A program made the position numbers and the translations under genes. The notes under the pieces were generated by a model. It did no database searches. It saw only the letters and a program-made list of their open reading frames with translations, and was not told the DNA's origin. A stretch of DNA of 64,000 nucleotides, taken from Cirrosporium novae-zelandiae (Eukaryota). The stretch is taken from NCBI GenBank assembly GCA_026023565.1, contig JAPETS010000030.1, positions 124,001 through 188,000 of the forward strand, written 5' to 3'. Positions 45,120 through 60,123 of the stretch are shown in pieces. Each line of letters opens with the position of its first letter. Position 1 is the first letter of the stretch.

Positions 45120-47050
45120 TGTCGTGAACAACGCAGGCAATCTTCAATTTTGGATAATCACAAATCTTCTATATAACCACCTTGCGGTTTATATCTAGTT
45201 ATTCAGGCCAACGATCTATAAGGAAAGGAAAAAGGATACTAGGGAGTCGACTGCCTAGGATGCCTAGATCAGGACGTTGTGCAGTTGCTGCTGCTGGGAC
45301 CCAGGAATTTGGTTTTTCCTGGGTAAATACTAGAAGCCTTGAGCATTGGAGCCCTGAATACGTGCTTTCAGCCTTGTTTCTACTGATTTGGATTGACTGT
45401 CGCTGGCTTATCCTGCTTATTTGGTCGATATACGCCATACATGCCTTGCAGAAACCACCGATTACTGACAGCCGCACTGAGGTCTCTACTGGGGAATCTA
45501 CTACCCCAGCTACTACTACTACCACCACTACTACTGCGCGGCCTACCTACGTATCTACCTACGTATCTACCGATCCGCCTACTAAATTACCTATTATCGA
45601 GCTTTCTGTCGAACCTACTGTCGAACCTACTGTCGAATCTATTATCGAACCTTTTATCGAACCTTCCACCGAGCCTTCCACCGAACCTTCTATCGACCTG
45701 CCTACCGATCTACCTACTGAAGGATCTATTGAAGCCTATATCGAAGACCTACCTACCGAGAATTCAACCGAAAGCCCTTCCGAGATACCTAAAACTGCTG
45801 TTCAGACCACTATTTATACTATGGCGTATTGGCCTCCGCCTAGCTCTGCTGGCGCCCCTAGATTCAGCGGCGTCGACGTCACCGATTTTCTAGAACAATG
45901 GGATTTCCTCTGCGGGGATAATGGCGTCAGAACTGCAGACCAATTTACAAGGCTGCAGCTGTACGTTGACCCGGAATACCGTTGGGATGTGGCCTTAATA
46001 GACGGATATAAAGAGCACGACTGGGACCTATTCGTGGCTAGTATGCGGGAGGAATATTATGACTGGGATTCTACGCAGCAGAAATATACGGAGGCACATC
46101 TAATAGACGTCGTATATACGTTTAGTCAGGATTTTGGCTCTAATTCTAGTCCTAGCCCTAGTTCGAGGCAGCTGAAGAAATACTGCAGGACTTATTTGGA
46201 TATCGTCAAGCATTTGGACGCCGAATTTATAACTGACCATTGGAAAAGTAGGCTGTTTCTACGTGGACTACCTAAGCACGTGCTGCGTCACCTCGCCGAC
46301 CAGGACCTTCTTAGGAAAAACTGCCCCTTCCAGGCTATTTATAAAGAAGCATTGGTGGTGGTCAGGCGACTATCTGAGCTAGAAACCTTGGAGCGAGAAA
46401 GGCAGGCTTACAAAGCCCTGATTACCCCTGTTTCTACTGCTACTTCTACTGTTGTTCCGACTGCTGCTCCGACTGCTGCCCCCCCCTATTGATATTGCGC
46501 CTAAGGAAGCCCTAACTGTCCCTATTTATACCGAGCCGCTGGATCGACTACCTATTTCTAGTATCCCTGTCGGAAAGACTGACCGACCATCTAAACGATC
46601 ATCTAACCGACCACCTGACAGATCTTCCCGGGGCTAATATAGCCTAACCGATATATCTACCTGGTGGTTTTCGTCGCTCCGAACAATATGGTGTCGTTTC
46701 CAGCCCGCTTGGAGCGAAGCTCGCAGAATTACGGCCGGATTTAGATCCAGGGTCTAGGCACTAGTATTCTAGGGAGTCACTATATCGGTACTCCGGATGC
46801 CCACGTCAGTATTCTAGGGATTCACGTTTTGGTTTTGGACCTCGGCTTAGCCCTAGGGCTTGTTTTGAAAGTCGGCGTAAAAAAAGGGGCGCATTTCTAG
46901 GATCCTAGGGATATTTGGGCTTTGTTTTTTTTTTGATGTGCAGTCGACTGCTTTGGTGGGTGGAGAGATATATGTCGTGGAGTAGGCCTACAAGCTCTAT
47001 TAACCGAGCCCAAGCGAGGGTATTTAGCGAGGACTTCTAGGAAGTGGGTG
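45120..47050 (+). mobile_element. Gag-only LTR-retrotransposon relic (Ty3/gypsy-like) with RIP-like composition
   Basis: Gag-like ORF with no pol. Purine tract GGTGGGTGGAGAGATATA directly before TGTCGTG at 46973, and another TGTCGTG at 45120. TpA-rich and CpA-poor. Boundaries approximate. Confidence 0.6.
45182..46492 (+). CDS. Retrotransposon Gag-like protein; real start uncertain (ATG 45821 begins the conserved domain)
   Basis: APRFSGVDVTDFLEQWDFLC...QFTRLQLYVDPEYR...DWDLFVASMREEY.DWDS.QQKYT...LKKYCRTY...RLFLRGLP resembles fungal LTR Gag capsid. Preceded by 12-bp STEP/TVEP repeats. Confidence 0.65.
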   Translation: MRFISSYSGQRSIRKGKRILGSRLPRMPRSGRCAVAAAGTQEFGFSWVNTRSLEHWSPEYVLSALFLLIWIDCRWLILLIWSIYAIHALQKPPITDSRTEVSTGESTTPATTTTTTTTARPTYVSTYVSTDPPTKLPIIELSVEPTVEPTVESIIEPFIEPSTEPSTEPSIDLPTDLPTEGSIEAYIEDLPTENSTESPSEIPKTAVQTTIYTMAYWPPPSSAGAPRFSGVDVTDFLEQWDFLCGDNGVRTADQFTRLQLYVDPEYRWDVALIDGYKEHDWDLFVASMREEYYDWDSTQQKYTEAHLIDVVYTFSQDFGSNSSPSPSSRQLKKYCRTYLDIVKHLDAEFITDHWKSRLFLRGLPKHVLRHLADQDLLRKNCPFQAIYKEALVVVRRLSELETLERERQAYKALITPVSTATSTVVPTAAPTAAPPY

Positions 47051-52133: not shown

Positions 52134-53511
52134 TCATGAATCTTTCGCACCATCTACCGCCTTCTCCTCCTCTTCAGTACGGGCCTTCTCTACAGCTTCT
52201 GCAAGAGTATCTCTGGGCGCTGCTCTCTGTGGAGGTGGGTCATTCGGAAGATACGAATACCCTGTATCTGTAGCTAGAACGGGAAATACGCGATAACTTG
52301 TGGTATAGGGACCTGAGATTTCCTGAGAATGAAGCTGTTGTCCTGAAAAATCCTGTGATAGAGATTGCTGGGGTTTAGCTGATTCGGCGAACTTTTGAGA
52401 GAGGATGGGAGAGGGGCTTGTGGCCGAATTTCTCTCCTTGGAAAGACCATACTTGAGATCAAGCTTGAGTCTTTTTGACTGTCTTTCTTCTATCGAAAGT
52501 AACTTGGATCTTGCTCTGGTGAAGTATTTTTCATTCCTTCCCCAGTTTTTATCCTCAATTTCACGGAGTTCTTGGCTAGTCAAATCCCTCAAATGTCTGG
52601 TAGAGTTCCTTTCGATCATATTTGGGGTCATATCATTGATGATATTCTGCTCCCAATGTTTCCCTTTCCGTTCTTTTGAATCCCAGACCACACATCGTGC
52701 TGCTCTTCGAAACCATGCCTGACGATTTGCAAGGGCTGTTTTGGTTGGCCTGGTTTCTGGTAACATCCTGGCTCTGAGGTCCAGTACCTTAATACGGCTA
52801 TCTTCACGTCGAATAGTTTCTATCAGGTGCCCTCCCACCATTGATCCTATTCTTGTCGGGAGGTCCCAGTCGACAACCGGCCATCCGTCAGGATCCAGAA
52901 CTACCCGACCTTGATCATCTACCATAGCTCCAGGTGCATAGCTGGGATTTTGTCGATCTTTGCGATATAGCTCGAATAAAATTGGGGCCCTGTTCTCTCG
53001 CTTTTCTCCCCAGTGACAATATCTAGGGTGGTATGATGTGGCATTCTTTGGCTGATGCTTTCTACCCAGTTTCACGGTATCCTGCTCAAACTCTACTGAT
53101 ATTAGTATTTTTTGAAAGCGAAGTTGAATTATAGTACGAACCATATTGCCGAGAGTCATTGATCTCAAGATTAGAGGCGTAGACAGCTTCACCTACGCTA
53201 GTTTTTAGCACTACAATCAGCAGACCTTTGGTGATATCTTTTCTCACGTTCTTCGCCATTATTTACATGGTCGTCTTCCTGTCTCTCTGAGTTTTTCGTC
53301 CATAGTTTGCCATCCCGCTGGATCACTCTGTTTCCGGGTGCTTCTTTTTGTTGGGCAGCTTTATTTCTCCATTCTAATAGCCCGAATAAGCCTTGTGTAG
53401 TTGTAAAAAGGGTCTCCACTTACTATTCAACAATACCCGCCATTTCTGATTGCGCGTGGCCTCCTCTGGGGTCTGATTCTCGTATTTCTTTCCTGGTACT
53501 TGGTCACTCAT
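52134..53511 (-). CDS. Uncharacterised 4-exon protein (~397 aa) with a basic helical domain
   Basis: Exons 53511-53424, 53373-53267, 53192-53142, 53081-52134 (donors GTAAGT, GTAAAT, GTTCGT; phases consistent). Core LPTRIGSMVGGHLIETIRREDSRIKVLDLRARM...TALANRQAWFRRAARCVVW. Confidence 0.75.
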
Positions 53512-54863
53512 GTCGGCTGAGGTGTGGTCGAAGATTGATGGGTGAATATCGCAAGAAAGATTCAATAAAAGGTCAGAGGTTAGCCCTCGTGACAACCCTA
53601 AGCGCAACCAGACTATTCAATATGTTGATGTTAACGTTGATATGCCGTGAGAATGAGAAATGTCGATATGTGCGGCTGTGAGAAAATCTCTTGTAGGTTG
53701 GATAGCTAGGGCGAGAAGCTGAGAGAGATGAGAAGAAAGGTTTTTAAAACTAATTCTGTTAGGAAACTGATTGTGTACGTAACCGGGTATTGACCGTGTG
53801 TTGATGAAGGCTAAAATCCAATGCGCCGAGTAGACTTCTTGAGACATGCGATCTCCATCGATTCCCATCAACGCCTCTTCAAAGATCCTCGAAACTTTGT
53901 TTATCGGGCTCTCTTGGGTTGAATTCTATATCAGTTGTATGTATTGTCTAATATGTATACTATAAGCAGTTGAGTACTAATAATTATATAAGTTTTTGCA
54001 TCTTGACAACAAGAGTGCACATTCCTGCTACCTCGATGAGTAGCATGGTAATGCTATTGTTTAGCGACAGGAACACCCCCAGCTTTTATGCCATGGTGAA
54101 TCCATCTCACAAAGTAGAGCTCCCTGACAAGTCCACGCTTTCCCAAAATGGCAACAAAGAGAAGAAAGTACGAGGATATGCTAGAAGACTTCGAGTGGTT
54201 CTCCACGGCATAGTCCATGGACGGAAACTAATACCAGGTTTGAAAGAAAATAGGAAGTAGAAAGTAAATGATTATTAGAGCAATACAATTCCATGTCATG
54301 AGCATTCATATCCAAGCAAGTCAACAAGTGAACTATGTGCCAAATAATGTGGATTTGCATAACCTAAAACTCTGGAACGTTGAAAATTAATCAGAGGGAG
54401 TGTATTTCTACATTTGCTCGAAGGCATCCCCCACGGCCTCAAAACAAGTTGTCGCCAATCCCGATACACGAACCGTTTCCGTCAGCGATTCTTATTGAAT
54501 TCCAAAATATAATCATACGATATTTGGGGTTATTACTCAAAAATGCGTAGAAACAGATTTGTCAATTAAATTATTGTTTTTTGTTCCTGAGCGGCTGCGG
54601 TCCTTGAAACAGAGCTAAATAGGAATCACGAAAAGGAATGGCACTGTAAGATGGACTAACAATGTTGAAATTTAGAGTCCTTGAGTGGTGACTTGAAAAA
54701 AATGGAAAATAGTTATTAACTATTTAAAACAAAAGAAAACCAAAAACAACAGACCGACAAGGCCAGGAAGCAGACCGACAACACACAAGGCAACCTATTT
54801 CCTGCCTTCTGAAAAGCTGAGATATTCTTTGCCTTTTTCTTTCAATCTAGAACAAAGTAGTAC

Positions 54864-55584
54864 TTACACATTGATTTCTTTCCGAAGTCGACATGCCTTC
54901 TCCTCTACCCGGAGTAATTCTAACTCCTTATCAACAATTCTTTTCGTATTTTCGAGCTTCTATTTATATATAAATATATCAAACAGGAAATGGTTGGATA
55001 AAAATATACCAGAATCGCCGTAGATTTTTCGGGTGGGGGAGGGAGGGCGCCGCACATGGTGGTAGAAATAATGGGGTTGGTGGGAGAAGGGATGGCTTGG
55101 CTATTCTCAGTTAGTATCTGATCATCATACCTTGTTGTAAGAGTAATGGGAGTTCTACTTACTCTGGATAGGTCTCCGACACAACCACGAGAAAGAGAGG
55201 CAATTCGAAAAAAAACAAAAAAACGAGAGACCCATAGGCTGAGGGTTGATATAATTTATCTTTTTTTCTCTCAGACTATACTAAAATGAGTACTTTCTTT
55301 TCAATATAGAACAAAGCAGTACTTACAAATTGATCTCCTCACGGAGACGACCCAGCTTCTCCTCTACACAGATTATCTCTAATTCTTTTTCGGAGATTTT
55401 TTCCTGATTTTCAGCCATCTATTTATATATGTTAGGGCATGCCAAGTGTAGACGTCTACGCGCTTACGAAGCGCTCGCTTGGCGCCTGAGTAATCTTATA
55501 AAGAAGAACGCTGTCCCACGTATTATGGGGGCAGCGTTCAACTTTTGCATCTACCTCAGAGGGCACTCCTAAAGCTATCATCAT
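54864..55584 (-). CDS. Hidden multi-exon small coiled-coil protein (>=131 aa) with a duplicated exon
   Basis: Exons 55584-55468, 55418-55327, 55100-55010, 54959-54864 join in frame. Introns have GTAAGC/GTAAGT/GTATAT donors, CTAAC branch points in two, and TAG acceptors. Start and end uncertain. Confidence 0.55.
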
Positions 55585-56428
55585 TCTGGCGTCTCGAATG
55601 CAAACCTTATAGTATTCTAGTTAGTTAATCACTACTTAGATAGTTATCCTATCACACAGCCTGGATTAGGCGCTGCCCTTACGTGCACGGAATCCTAGCT
55701 GAGTGGCAAAGATTCACCCCGACATTCACTTCCACATCTATTCACCAGTCGCGGACCGTAAGACCAGAACATCTCAATTGCAACAACAATTAGGAAATCG
55801 GAGGCCAAGTCTTCTAGGAAAGGAGATTGTGGTTTCTAGCAAGTACGTTCGATGTTCAGGCATATTCCGTGCTAAGATTAGAGAGCAAAGATAGCATATT
55901 TTTCATAGAATTAATTCTACATCCTTATACAAAATAATACATAGAAATGTATAAGGTGAAGTTATGTGACATGTCACGTGACGTAAAAACTGAGGCACAC
56001 ACCTAAATCGGCATTTGTAACAGAAACGGAGTTCAAGAAACTCGGGCTCTGAAACTGAAGACTTTGTAGTCCATCTCCTATATTTCAGAGCCGTTCAATA
56101 AAAATAAGGTTGATTCAAATCTATGTCTCATGAAAATTAACTTCTTGATTGGAAATTTTGAGGAAGTGGTGATCCTTGTGAGCAACTACGTAGGTAGGTT
56201 AATAGAAAGTAGTTCTATCTTTCCTGGATGGCCATGTGCAAGCTAAGAGATCTCGCTAAAAATAGATGCTTAAAATTTCATAAACAATTCAATAATCCCG
56301 TAACCGCTAACTTTTCTTGTTTTTCCATATCTATTCTATAGTAATGATATGGGTATGTCAATAATAGATTATCATTAGATTATGAAACCAATAGAACTGT
56401 ATCAAAAATCAATAAAAATTAAATCTAA

Positions 56429-56532
56429 TGATGCTGGCGCGATTCGAACGCGCGAGGTTTCCCACTGCGGATTTTCCGGATCTATTACAGATTGGCCTAA
56501 ACACAGCGCCTTAACCACTCGGCCACAGCACC
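56429..56532 (-). tRNA. tRNA-Leu(UAG) with ~25-nt intron
   Basis: Acceptor stem GGTGCTG/CAGCATC plus A73; D arm GCCGAGTGGTTAAGGC; anticodon stem CTGTG/CGCAG with loop TT-TAG-G then intron; long variable arm; T arm GCGCG-TTCGAAT-CGCGC; T-run terminator downstream. Confidence 0.95.
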
Positions 56533-58733
56533 GATCATTGGTTGATATAAATATATCTGAAAATAATTTATAGAATGAGTTGCAAAGATTGGTGGGAGGC
56601 TTTCCGTTTAAAAGGTTGTTTAATGATTTTGGGAGTCGGTGTTGTTGTTGGTGTATTCGCTAAATTTCTATCAGTTCTCGGCCCGGCGGCCCCACTTGAA
56701 CTTCCACGAGGAGTTTAGCGAGGCTTGGCGAGAGACAAGCATGGAAGAAGCTAAGCTCAAAGGATATTTCTTAGTCCTAAACCCTTAAACCCTTTGTCTC
56801 AGCCGACACGTCGGCAGTCTCTACTAACTTAATACTTTTTGTGCAAATGGAGCTTCAACTACTTCCCCTAATATTTATAAAAAGCATGTCTATCTATTTA
56901 CCATTTGTTTGTTCCCTTGTTTCAATATATATAAAAGAGTCTCCTATGGATTTTGCAAAGTGTCTTCACTTACTACCTCGGGACCCCCACCTACATCCTA
57001 GCCCCCTTGGTCTGGTCGGTTTATTAAAATCTAAGGCCCGACACAAGGCACGCTGAGCGCGAAAATTTTTTGAATATCGATTCACTACATCTTATCTTAT
57101 CCCCACGTGATATCACGTGATGATATGGCTCCCTTGCAAGATGAACTCTTTAGTAGCAATCCATTGCATATCTTATACCCTAGCTTGCATACCAGTTCTC
57201 AAGATCGCAACCGCAGTCTTACCATCATTTTTAGTGAGGAAGGTGGTTCATTTCTAGGGGTGGCTATACTGTTGCAGAGGCATAATGTTCATTCTTGTGG
57301 TCTAAGAATCTAATATTCAATTTGCGGGTTACCTGACCAAGGTCATCACTGTGGGGGACCAACACTCTCCAACATATACGCCCGTCCAAGCTCTCTAACT
57401 ATATACCATACACCAACTTTTCACATGTATCCTACACCCCCAGGACTACAACTTTAGCCTTCTATTATTATTAGCATTCTGCAACAATCAACTCGACTCT
57501 TCTTAACTTTTCAGCGTATCTCTCCCCTTCCATCGCTCTGAGTACGTTAATGTCTTTATCAGACTGGTTGAGAGCGTAGCGTGCCCCTAGTATTTAGTCT
57601 TTTCCTGCTTCTTGATATCTCAACCTCAGTTTTCGTACCAAATACCAATTGATTAATTCTAACTATTCCCTTTCCTTAATATTATCGTATTTAAGATTCG
57701 ATACATTCTCAAATTATCTAAAAAACCCATTGATCACCCAGATTTCTATTTTTTTTCCGGTGGCTTGACTTGTTCACCCCTCTCTAGTCCTCTCGAGTCC
57801 CCTAACTCTGATAATTCTATCTGATACTCTTTATGCTTTCATTTTTCTTGGATGTAGGTATTTTCATTATCCTTAGTATCCCTGTGAATCTCCTTCTCGA
57901 TATTACTACGGTAATTTCCGATCACTTCACAACAAGGGAGGCCAAAAAAGGATCAGTTTTTTATAATGATTCAATTTGAAAACCTCCCCAAAGGCTGATA
58001 GATCGAAGTTAATTGCGAGCATATACAAGTTGGTTTTGTCTGAAGGCTTCTCTAAGGTTACTTTTTTGGGTTCTTTTTTTTGATCTAGTCGCTTTCATTT
58101 GTATTATTCCTCTCCACCACTCAGTCCAAGTGCCAGTCTGTCTTCATAGCTTCATATGCCATATCCATTGCGATCTCCAACTCCATACTACAACTTCCCT
58201 ATGTAGAGCTTTGAAGTCTAATGAGTTTCATTTCTACGCACCCTACATGTTCTCTTCCTACACAGAAACTTCAGTGAACCTATTCCCATATACTAGCTAT
58301 ATAGAACTGAACCAAACTAACTTGCTATATAATATCTCGCATGCAATTTCAATTGCTCTCTAAGCTGCCTACGGCGTGGTACATGCTAGAAAACTGGCAA
58401 TTGCTACCGGCGGAGACCCGTGTCCGACCAAAGCCCACTGGAGCTATCACCTCATTGGCCGAAGAAACCACTTCCTACCAATGCCTCTATTATTCACTTT
58501 TGTGACCATTATTCGCCTCTGTTGTATCTATATCTTCTCGTCTTCTTCTCCTTCTCTCCTTCTTTCTTTCTCCAAGCTTCAATAACCAATTACTGCGAAT
58601 TCAAACAACAATTCAATTTTTTCATCTAAAAATCAAGTCTCCACTCTATACTCTCTTCTCTACTTTCAAATAGAAAGTTTCAATTTCCCTTGTTACTTTT
58701 CCACTTCTTCTCCTTCTTTTCTCTTCATCCAAA

Positions 58734-60123
58734 ATGTCTTACTCTAGAGAAGGTGAAAAATTAGCGTTCCTGACCTTTTCATCTTTCTTATGTGTCTCTA
58801 GACTTTGCTGCAACCGTTGCTGGCACCACTGTGACCAGTCCCAAGTAGGTTCTCTTCTGTTGCCTCTGTGACAGCAGGATGACAGCTTACTAACGTCTAG
58901 CAGCGATCATCAAGCTAAGGAATCTGACTTTCCTTCCCTTAGCGTTGTTTTTCAGGAGACCTTCGCAGAAGCCGAAGCATTCGACGGCATTGATTACATT
59001 GAGCGATTTGCCAATGAAGGGCAGCCAGCCGTCAAGGATGAGATCACTTCATATATCCTGCCAAATATTCACGGTCTCGTCAAGCAGGGAGACTCTTCCC
59101 TTAAAGGGTATGCAAATGCTCAACTTTGGTTTTATTAAGGCTAACGATGAATCTTGCAGGTTCGAACGCATCAAGGTCAACCCACATCAAACCGCCAACG
59201 AGCCCCATATCTACATGCATGTGATATACGACAACCAGGGCCACGTCTACCGATACATCGGACAGGCCGGTCGCCTTCGCAAGCAGCTGAACGACCACCT
59301 TGACCCCAACTCACGTGCGAAGCATCCCTGCCTTCATTATCACATCTAGCAGGAACAAGGCATGAAGGATTTCTGGGTTATCTTGGCAAGTGTGCCACTC
59401 CAGACAGGCAATGGGTATTCCGAGTTGCTTCGAGCGTGGATGCTTAACCTCACTGAGCACGTCTGCACTAAATTGTTTCAGAGTCTAGTTTCAGAGCGGA
59501 CCGAAGGCTGGCAGCATGTTCCTTTGAACATGGCACCGCCTCTATATCAAGGAAATCGTTGCTTCGGTAAGGTTGAGTCTACCATAGCTGACAATATTAG
59601 ACACCAAGCTTCTTTGAACTTGGAAATAATCAGTGACCCTCAGGTGCGACAATAGTGGACAGTATGGCACAACACCAGTGGGCCCACTCGCGTCCGTCGG
59701 CTGATCGACTCACTTTTCAATAGTGTTGAAAAAGCAGGGAAGTTCAATAAAAGTGACGATCGCTATTTTATAACCTTCAGTAAAGTCGTAATCAAGTTTA
59801 ACTGGAGAGACCAAGCTACTCTCGGCCTGGACGCTGATCATCTAGATGTGACTGTACAAGCTTTCCTAAGCCCTAATGGCCCCGATATGCATCACTATGC
59901 CACTGCTGCCCACCCAGACGATCCTGCTGCCCGCCTATCATTCCGCGTTACTGGACCTAGTGGTCAAATAAAGTGGGCCAAGCAAGGTGGCGACATGATG
60001 GCCAAAAAGATGAACACTTTTGTTCACCTCAGGGAAGGCAAGTCTCGCGCTGATATTCTAGACATGGAAAGATGTTTCCAGCGAGTGTCGAACACTAATG
60101 GATTGAAGAGCTTTTACACTTAA
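58734..60123 (+). pseudogene. GIY-YIG-like nuclease gene (410 codons) interrupted by two in-frame TAG codons
   Basis: Exons 58734-58752, 58802-58844, 58901-59107, 59160-60123 with canonical introns. Motif PHIYMHVIY-x7-RYIGQAGRLRKQLNDH. TAG at 59347-59349 and 59653-59655; no frameshifts. Confidence 0.7.

Follow-up and report, generated by a model that had tools for sequence, protein, structure and literature searches.

A Probable Young Pseudogene of a Fungal GIY-YIG Endonuclease with Two In-Frame TAG Codons in Cirrosporium novae-zelandiae

Results

The gene at positions 58734..60123 of the analyzed window, by which we mean the whole stretch of 64,000 nucleotides, is likely a young pseudogene of a fungal GIY-YIG endonuclease that was struck by G>A mutation of the RIP or methylation type. 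We favor this reading because the catalytic arginine and three near-invariant residues are altered, because a dead relative, L032, has the same stop signature, and because the gene belongs to a lineage without known genome-wide editing and has no OLD deaminase beside it. The preliminary description of the locus had put forward a toxic nuclease activated by RNA editing and had named light RIP-type decay as the simpler fallback: In view of the arginine, the other lesions, the pattern in L032, and the lineage, the former cannot be called the likeliest reading, and the loss of the arginine and the L032 pattern fit the latter better.

Four exons on the forward strand join to 1230 nt, corresponding to 410 codons including the final TAA. 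Exon 1 (58734..58752) carries the ATG and has the same start as the public protein model P0002, exon 2 (58802..58844) continues the joined reading frame, exon 3 (58904..59107) encodes the N-terminal subdomain of the family (E 8.8e-7 with a profile of 31 homologue N-termini), and exon 4 (59160..60123) encodes the GIY-YIG domain, followed by a helical linker and a beta-rich C-terminal domain, and closes with TAA. The three introns of 49 nt (58753..58801), 59 nt (58845..58903, with an alternative in-frame acceptor at 58900), and 52 nt (59108..59159, phase 2) all show GT-AG ends and a CTRAC branch motif; the place and phase of the third are, by eye, common to the homologous loci L031, L023, and L033. 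Exon join and intron ends thus agree with the 410-codon gene with three good introns that had been proposed, the frame is colinear across the joined exons, without frameshift or other indel, and both TAG codons stand in frame as reported, at 59347..59349 (codon 152, HYHI*Q) and at 59653..59655 (codon 254, VRQ*W). Also in line with the preliminary description, many potentially vulnerable codons survive (10 CAA, 12 CAG, and 7 TGG, to which 5 CGA may be added) and TpA is not raised in the gene, the RIP composite index being -0.56. No further upstream exon was found in 54001-59200.

The only match of a word-based protein search (1 among 1048 candidates) was the public model of the locus itself, P0002, which equals the read-through protein of the gene apart from both TAG regions. 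These are skipped as introns at ~59315-59359 and ~59567-59662 of the window: both introns are invented and cut out conserved motifs. Were the stops truly bypassed by splicing, or by leaky readthrough, a catalytically dead DNA-binding protein would result, which we consider very unlikely. The existence of the public model speaks for splicing, as does the good GTAAGG donor with which the second skipped piece opens, but the donor of the first skip is weak, its acceptor is AAG, a CTRAC motif is missing (by eye), and the skip would delete the motif HPCLHYHxW, in which H and Y occur in 88/88 homologues, while the second would delete a conserved DPxxRxY/W stretch. Readthrough, for its part, would be required twice, in the contexts TAG-CAG and TAG-TGG.

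The surroundings of the gene hold several further features. The stretch upstream of it is gene-poor and contains a 352-codon open frame without Pfam match (52134-53192, reverse strand), a 137-nt direct repeat whose copies at 54835-54971 and 55294-55430 are 74% identical and lie 459 nt apart, and, at ~56430-56530, a segment resembling an intron-containing tRNA gene, where ARAGORN in bacterial mode reports none. Convincing terminal repeats around the gene were not found. Farther away, at 45158-46492 (forward strand), lies a 444-codon open frame that the preliminary description called gag-like and that is mildly TpA-rich (composite 0.16-0.35); it has no Pfam match, and because no second copy was found by DNA, no RIP spectrum could be derived from it.

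For all family searches, exon 4 was read with TAG as Trp; we refer to this query as P0001. The search yielded 96 proteins at E ≤ 0.001 and ~30% identity, and among 30 clusters that were looked up all those with organism names belong to Pezizomycotina, with the genera Aspergillus, Penicillium, Talaromyces, Rasamsonia, Lophiostoma, Halenospora, Sarea, Piccolia, and Claussenomyces; the UniRef label of the relatives is ‘GIY-YIG domain-containing protein’. Gene and family have the motifs HPSLHY, LLNLxEM, LNVAxPLxQ, DPAxRL, and NxLVDxLEG in common. Column statistics were taken from an alignment of 92 rows, from which the self-model and three proteins >800 aa had been left out, or of 88 rows, from which four further low-complexity or partial rows had been removed.

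The resemblance to GIY-YIG endonucleases that had been noted from the letters alone is borne out by fold matches and by weak Pfam matches within the family. The Pfam GIY-YIG profile (PF01541) is weak throughout, reaching E ≤ 0.05 in 21 of 50 members with a best value of 2.9e-5. The AlphaFold model of the read-through protein has a pLDDT of 86.3, and its residues 14-126 (P0001 numbering; 59200..59538) form a predicted GIY-YIG nuclease domain that matches I-TevI with Z 8.7 (rmsd 2.3, 90 aligned), T4 EndoII with 6.9, and UvrC with 6.6. Foldseek agrees insofar as its top four matches are UvrC, but none of them reaches E ≤ 0.001; a PDB sequence search with profile A1 gave no relevant match (best E 0.034). 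For the C-terminal part, taken within the whole-chain model, no clear fold match appeared (Z ≤ 3.3, with weak transposase-core rows). An atlas search with a natural homologue returned ‘hypothetical’ Ascomycota clusters at 0.90, 0.88, and 0.86 and, at 0.84, a GIY-YIG cluster from bacteria, all of which serve as leads only.

The motif pair reads HIY (Y18) and YIG (Y32-G34) in P0001 and GxY / YVG in the family, which keeps the residues Y, R, H, E, and N with the spacing known from I-BmoI, that is, ten positions from Tyr to Arg and four more to His. In the Cirrosporium copy four of these five are intact: the Tyr of YIG (59254..59256; equivalent to Y17 of I-TevI/I-BmoI; Y in 82/88), the His (59296..59298; H31 equivalent; H in 88/88), the metal-binding Glu E99 (59455..59457; E74/E75 equivalent; E in 85/88), and the structural Asn N123 (59527..59529; N87 equivalent; N in 79/88, with 4 gaps). 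The catalytic Arg (R27 equivalent) is replaced by Gln, encoded by CAG at 59284..59286, in a column that holds R 85, Q 2, and C 1 times in 88 rows. According to PMC2853131, GIY-YIG enzymes no longer cleave once Y17, R27, E74, or N87 is mutated. In most of the family representatives the frame is open and the Arg is retained. Judged from sequence and fold model, the intact family protein is most likely a metal-dependent nuclease that nicks or cuts DNA, of an accessory or selfish kind; a functional study of this Pezizomycotina family was not found in the literature, which does not prove that none exists.

Turning to the two stops, the first (TAG 1) occupies a column that among 92 homologues contains Trp 58, Leu 11, Met 9, and Gln 0 times, and the second (TAG 2) a Tyr/Trp column with Tyr 43, Trp 23, gap 14, and Gln 1. 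Both positions are Trp-compatible, and therefore the stops probably arose by TGG>TAG and not by CAG>TAG: The earlier RIP fallback had allowed for either change, of which the first fits the columns and the second is rejected by the near absence of Gln. TGG>TAG is the TpG>TpA change of RIP as well as a change of the editing type. An alternative genetic code is likewise rejected; elsewhere TAG serves as an ordinary stop or acceptor, and the pseudogenes of the genome carry all three stops. Since TAG 1 precedes E99 and N123, both of which lie 3' of it, the product would be dead unless edited.

The claim that the two TAGs are the only lesions did not survive comparison with the family. Four of the 20 columns conserved to at least 90% are changed too, the catalytic Arg included; this ranks as third worst among 51 near-full-length rows, and 27 of these rows show no such change. 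The other three are AGT (Ser) at 59722..59724 in a Gly column (94% of 64; Gly188 of P0001), in TpG context, CAC (His) at 60025..60027 in an Asp column (90% of 52; Asp289), a transversion, and TGT (Cys) at 60073..60075 in an Arg column (92% of 52; Arg305), a C>T change at CpG. Each of the four is one base away from a consensus codon. Four of the six clearest lesions have an A where G is expected and hence are formally editable, the Gly>Ser site lying in the same context, UAGUG, as TAG 2; Asp>His and Arg>Cys are beyond A-to-I correction. Of the transition-type changes at columns conserved to at least 65%, 5/5 fall in TpG or CpG, which are small numbers, and 0/30 sites in other contexts are changed, a pattern that matches the per-site rates of L032; the same threshold brings up 14 other differences. 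Because the gene is only ~30% identical to its homologues, part of these column changes may represent old divergence.

That stops and missense changes alike are consensus errors of the assembly seems to us highly improbable: Six changes in a single 1-kb exon with a biological context bias argue against it, as does a 4145-codon dynein frame that is open in the same window, even if the source assembly is termed a MAG and a DIM-2-like gene likewise has an unexpected in-frame TGA. The latter, a methyltransferase to which we assigned the DIM-2 label presumptively from motif and size (L034, G000:C96:257488-258588, forward strand), has this TGA within motif I (FAGCG*LGHG), where an intron is not apparent, and is either a broken methyltransferase or affected by a base error.

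A natural control for the decay of such genes came from a metagenome scan that found 14 loci of the family with a search pattern that required Trp at site 1 and could not retrieve TAG there. L032, which is dead, and its intact sister L031 are 94% identical across 2437 bp. Their exons 4 differ at 65 sites, with 30 G>A and 10 C>T; 2/7 TGG codons have become TAG in L032, 0/11 CAA/CAG and 0/11 CGA codons have become stops, there is no internal gap, and the RIP index is -0.08. The catalytic Glu is changed to Lys and YVG to YVR. Per site, the rate is 0.24 where T precedes, 0.18 where C precedes, and 0.03 at coding-strand CpA. Strand-biased G>A decay alone thus reproduces the pattern of two TAGs with neither indels nor TpA excess, L032 being one control and not a distribution. 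In total, 7/14 metagenome loci were judged by reading to be broken by stops or frameshifts. In one of them, L022, the column of site 2 holds a TAG (~1651-1653) that probably derives from a Tyr codon and speaks against the pseudogene reading; but this copy has also lost the invariant His and runs into a TGA 40 codons after its TAG. The segment common to L031 (3173-5609) and L032 (5056-7486) is sharply bounded and set in unrelated flanks, from which we gather that the family may move as a unit; terminal repeats or a target duplication were not visible by eye at its ends.

Discussion

Our preferred reading, the young pseudogene, can be put as follows. The intact ancestor would have comprised the N-terminal subdomain, the GIY-YIG domain with its Y-R-H-E-N site, the helical linker, and the C-terminal beta-rich domain. 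Mutation of the C>T deamination type, mostly on the template strand, would then have struck this copy at TpG and CpG sites and changed two TGG codons to TAG, the catalytic CGG to CAG, and Gly to Ser, if the column consensus is taken for the ancestral codons. One C>T change at CpG on the other strand and one transversion would have occurred under relaxed selection. Translation would end at codon 151 and so never reach the catalytic Glu and Asn, and we infer that the protein of this copy is inactive.

Several observations stand against this pseudogene reading. A trigger repeat was not found, DNA, read-through protein, and homologue queries, the last two being proteins, each giving one genomic match, so that classical RIP is unproven; without a repeat partner, leakage, a lost partner, or methylation remain. 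RIP leakage into single-copy genes is documented in PMC2973834. Moreover, the gene shows no elevation of RIP indices and keeps both its frame and its splice signals, and strand-symmetric CpA mutation gives P 0.08 for both stops falling at TGG. In favor of the pseudogene, as regards the machinery and its traces elsewhere in the genome, a 716-codon open frame with DNA_methylase matches (L035) is, as we assume from its domain layout, RID-like. Among 42 HET-domain matches, 5 carry stops, 11 in all and of mixed kind, including W>TAG, W>TGA, Q>TAA, and Q>TAG; these HET pseudogenes (L062-L066) lie on contigs C50, C48, C56, C43, and C86 of the genome (G000).

The principal rival of the pseudogene is a live gene gated by A-to-I correction of its premature stops, so that the nuclease is made only in sex or virus infection. 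UAG would be read as UIG (Trp) twice and CAG probably as CIG, restoring Arg, through an OLD-type deaminase or Tad2-Tad3. We assign this reading a low probability, and it is likewise unlikely that the two stops and the catalytic Arg are stored as A and restored jointly, probably by an OLD-like deaminase acting in trans. The Trp-compatible columns with almost no Gln, the absence of indels, and the intact introns would suit such a gene, and the read-through model folds well (pLDDT 86) with Y, H, E, and N intact, but the confidence of that model derives from the homologue alignment and has no bearing on expression. The target As are unpaired in all 6 folds, each with a purine at +3; 33 to 44 of ~52 UA sites are unpaired too, and a stable stem-loop was found at neither stop (z -0.35 to +1.7). 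The fit to the editing motif stressed in the preliminary description is present, but U at -1 and G at +1 come with every TAG: Only the purine at +3 is informative, and it occurs at 5/9 Trp-codon positions, or at both stops by chance with ~0.28. Three or four edits per transcript would be needed, the Arg site having a disfavored C at -1, and D>H and R>C would be left even after A-to-I conversion.

The lineage argues in the same direction. Cirrosporium novae-zelandiae is placed in class Xylobotryomycetes (PMC6712537), outside the known genome-wide editors, as the earlier caution that editing is not established here had it: In the account of PMC11156358, reports of genome-wide editing are limited to Sordariomycetes and Pyronema, and none was found in Aspergillus or Botrytis. 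In favor of editing, stops of this type arise mostly from TGG and some are described in classes outside Sordariomycetes (PMC10776026). A literature search found no report of editing in the genus Cirrosporium, which leaves its absence unproven. As presented in bioRxiv 10.1101/2023.10.18.562923, it was in Sordariomycetes that Ame1 acquired its role in editing, for which an MV pair is required; at this site, placed indirectly by counting from the catalytic Asp with an uncertainty of one residue, the two DUF726 genes of the genome have KS and LD, not MV. A TAG in one of these two genes was considered as an editing stop and rejected, as it is an intron acceptor. L035 is open here, whereas FgRID needs editing in Fusarium (PMC11156358). 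Among 138 kinase matches, 8 have TAG as their only stop, and 8/8 of these are intronic (three by eye); an MFS search, in which 9/434 candidates were scored and none of those 9 had stops, was uninformative. Other editing-type stops were not found among the kinase, HET, and DUF726 matches checked.

What keeps the editing reading alive is that the genome has five OLD-like deaminases. These intact OTT_1508-like genes and a decayed one lie at G000:C61:51627-58680, C13:614913 and 682343, and C72:122074, three of them in a row within ~7 kb on C61. A deaminase search of the genome gave no OLD match on the contig of the nuclease gene itself, and OLD is described in PMC12754623 as acting mainly on adjacent zao genes, OLD-1 having broader targets. 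Within ~10 kb of the OLD-like genes a regex search found no C2H2 pattern, where introns could hide one.

Comparison with known systems places the locus, as the probable pseudogene, among several familiar cases. With I-TevI, I-BmoI, T4 EndoII, and UvrC's N-terminal domain, the fungal family has in common the fold of residues 14-126 and the layout Y..YxG-x8-R-x3-H..E..N; unlike these, it is encoded by a nuclear, intron-containing gene with N-terminal, linker, and C-terminal parts of its own, and the Cirrosporium copy is truncated and without the Arg that its family keeps. Toward the Pezizomycotina relatives there is full-length homology at ~30% identity and the common intron, and those relatives are mostly open. 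The PSC genes of Fusarium and Neurospora (PUK1, AMD1, FgRID, FgAMA1; Tad2-Tad3-Ame1) are alike in being colinear with TAG at a former Trp, but they are otherwise functional and keep their stops across species, whereas here the active site is damaged as well. The OLD-ZAO antiviral module, in which a dedicated deaminase corrects UAG, has OLD-like counterparts in the Cirrosporium genome, but its known target is an adjacent zinc-finger gene and here the contig has no OLD match. Finally, the RIP-leakage alleles of Leptosphaeria AvrLm6 resemble the locus in that TpG>TpA stops and missense changes have struck a gene present in one copy; in contrast to them, the damage here is much lighter, CpG sites are hit too, and no convincing flanking repeat was found.

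Conclusion

If the editing reading were true, fungal A-to-I editing would reach one more class, Xylobotryomycetes, and GIY-YIG nucleases would have their first case under editing control, a new kind of controlled nuclease. The protein would then be a candidate effector of antiviral suicide or meiotic drive, belonging to a fungal nuclease family that is undescribed and possibly mobile. As a pseudogene, the locus is an ordinary, broken member of the GIY-YIG superfamily. The intact family behind it is a widespread, patchy, often broken nuclease group of Pezizomycotina with a full active site and a function undescribed in the literature found. For the interpretation of similar genes it follows from L032 as a counterexample that stops of the Trp>TAG kind alone, without indels or TpA excess, are not diagnostic of RNA editing, and gene callers mask such stops with invented introns.
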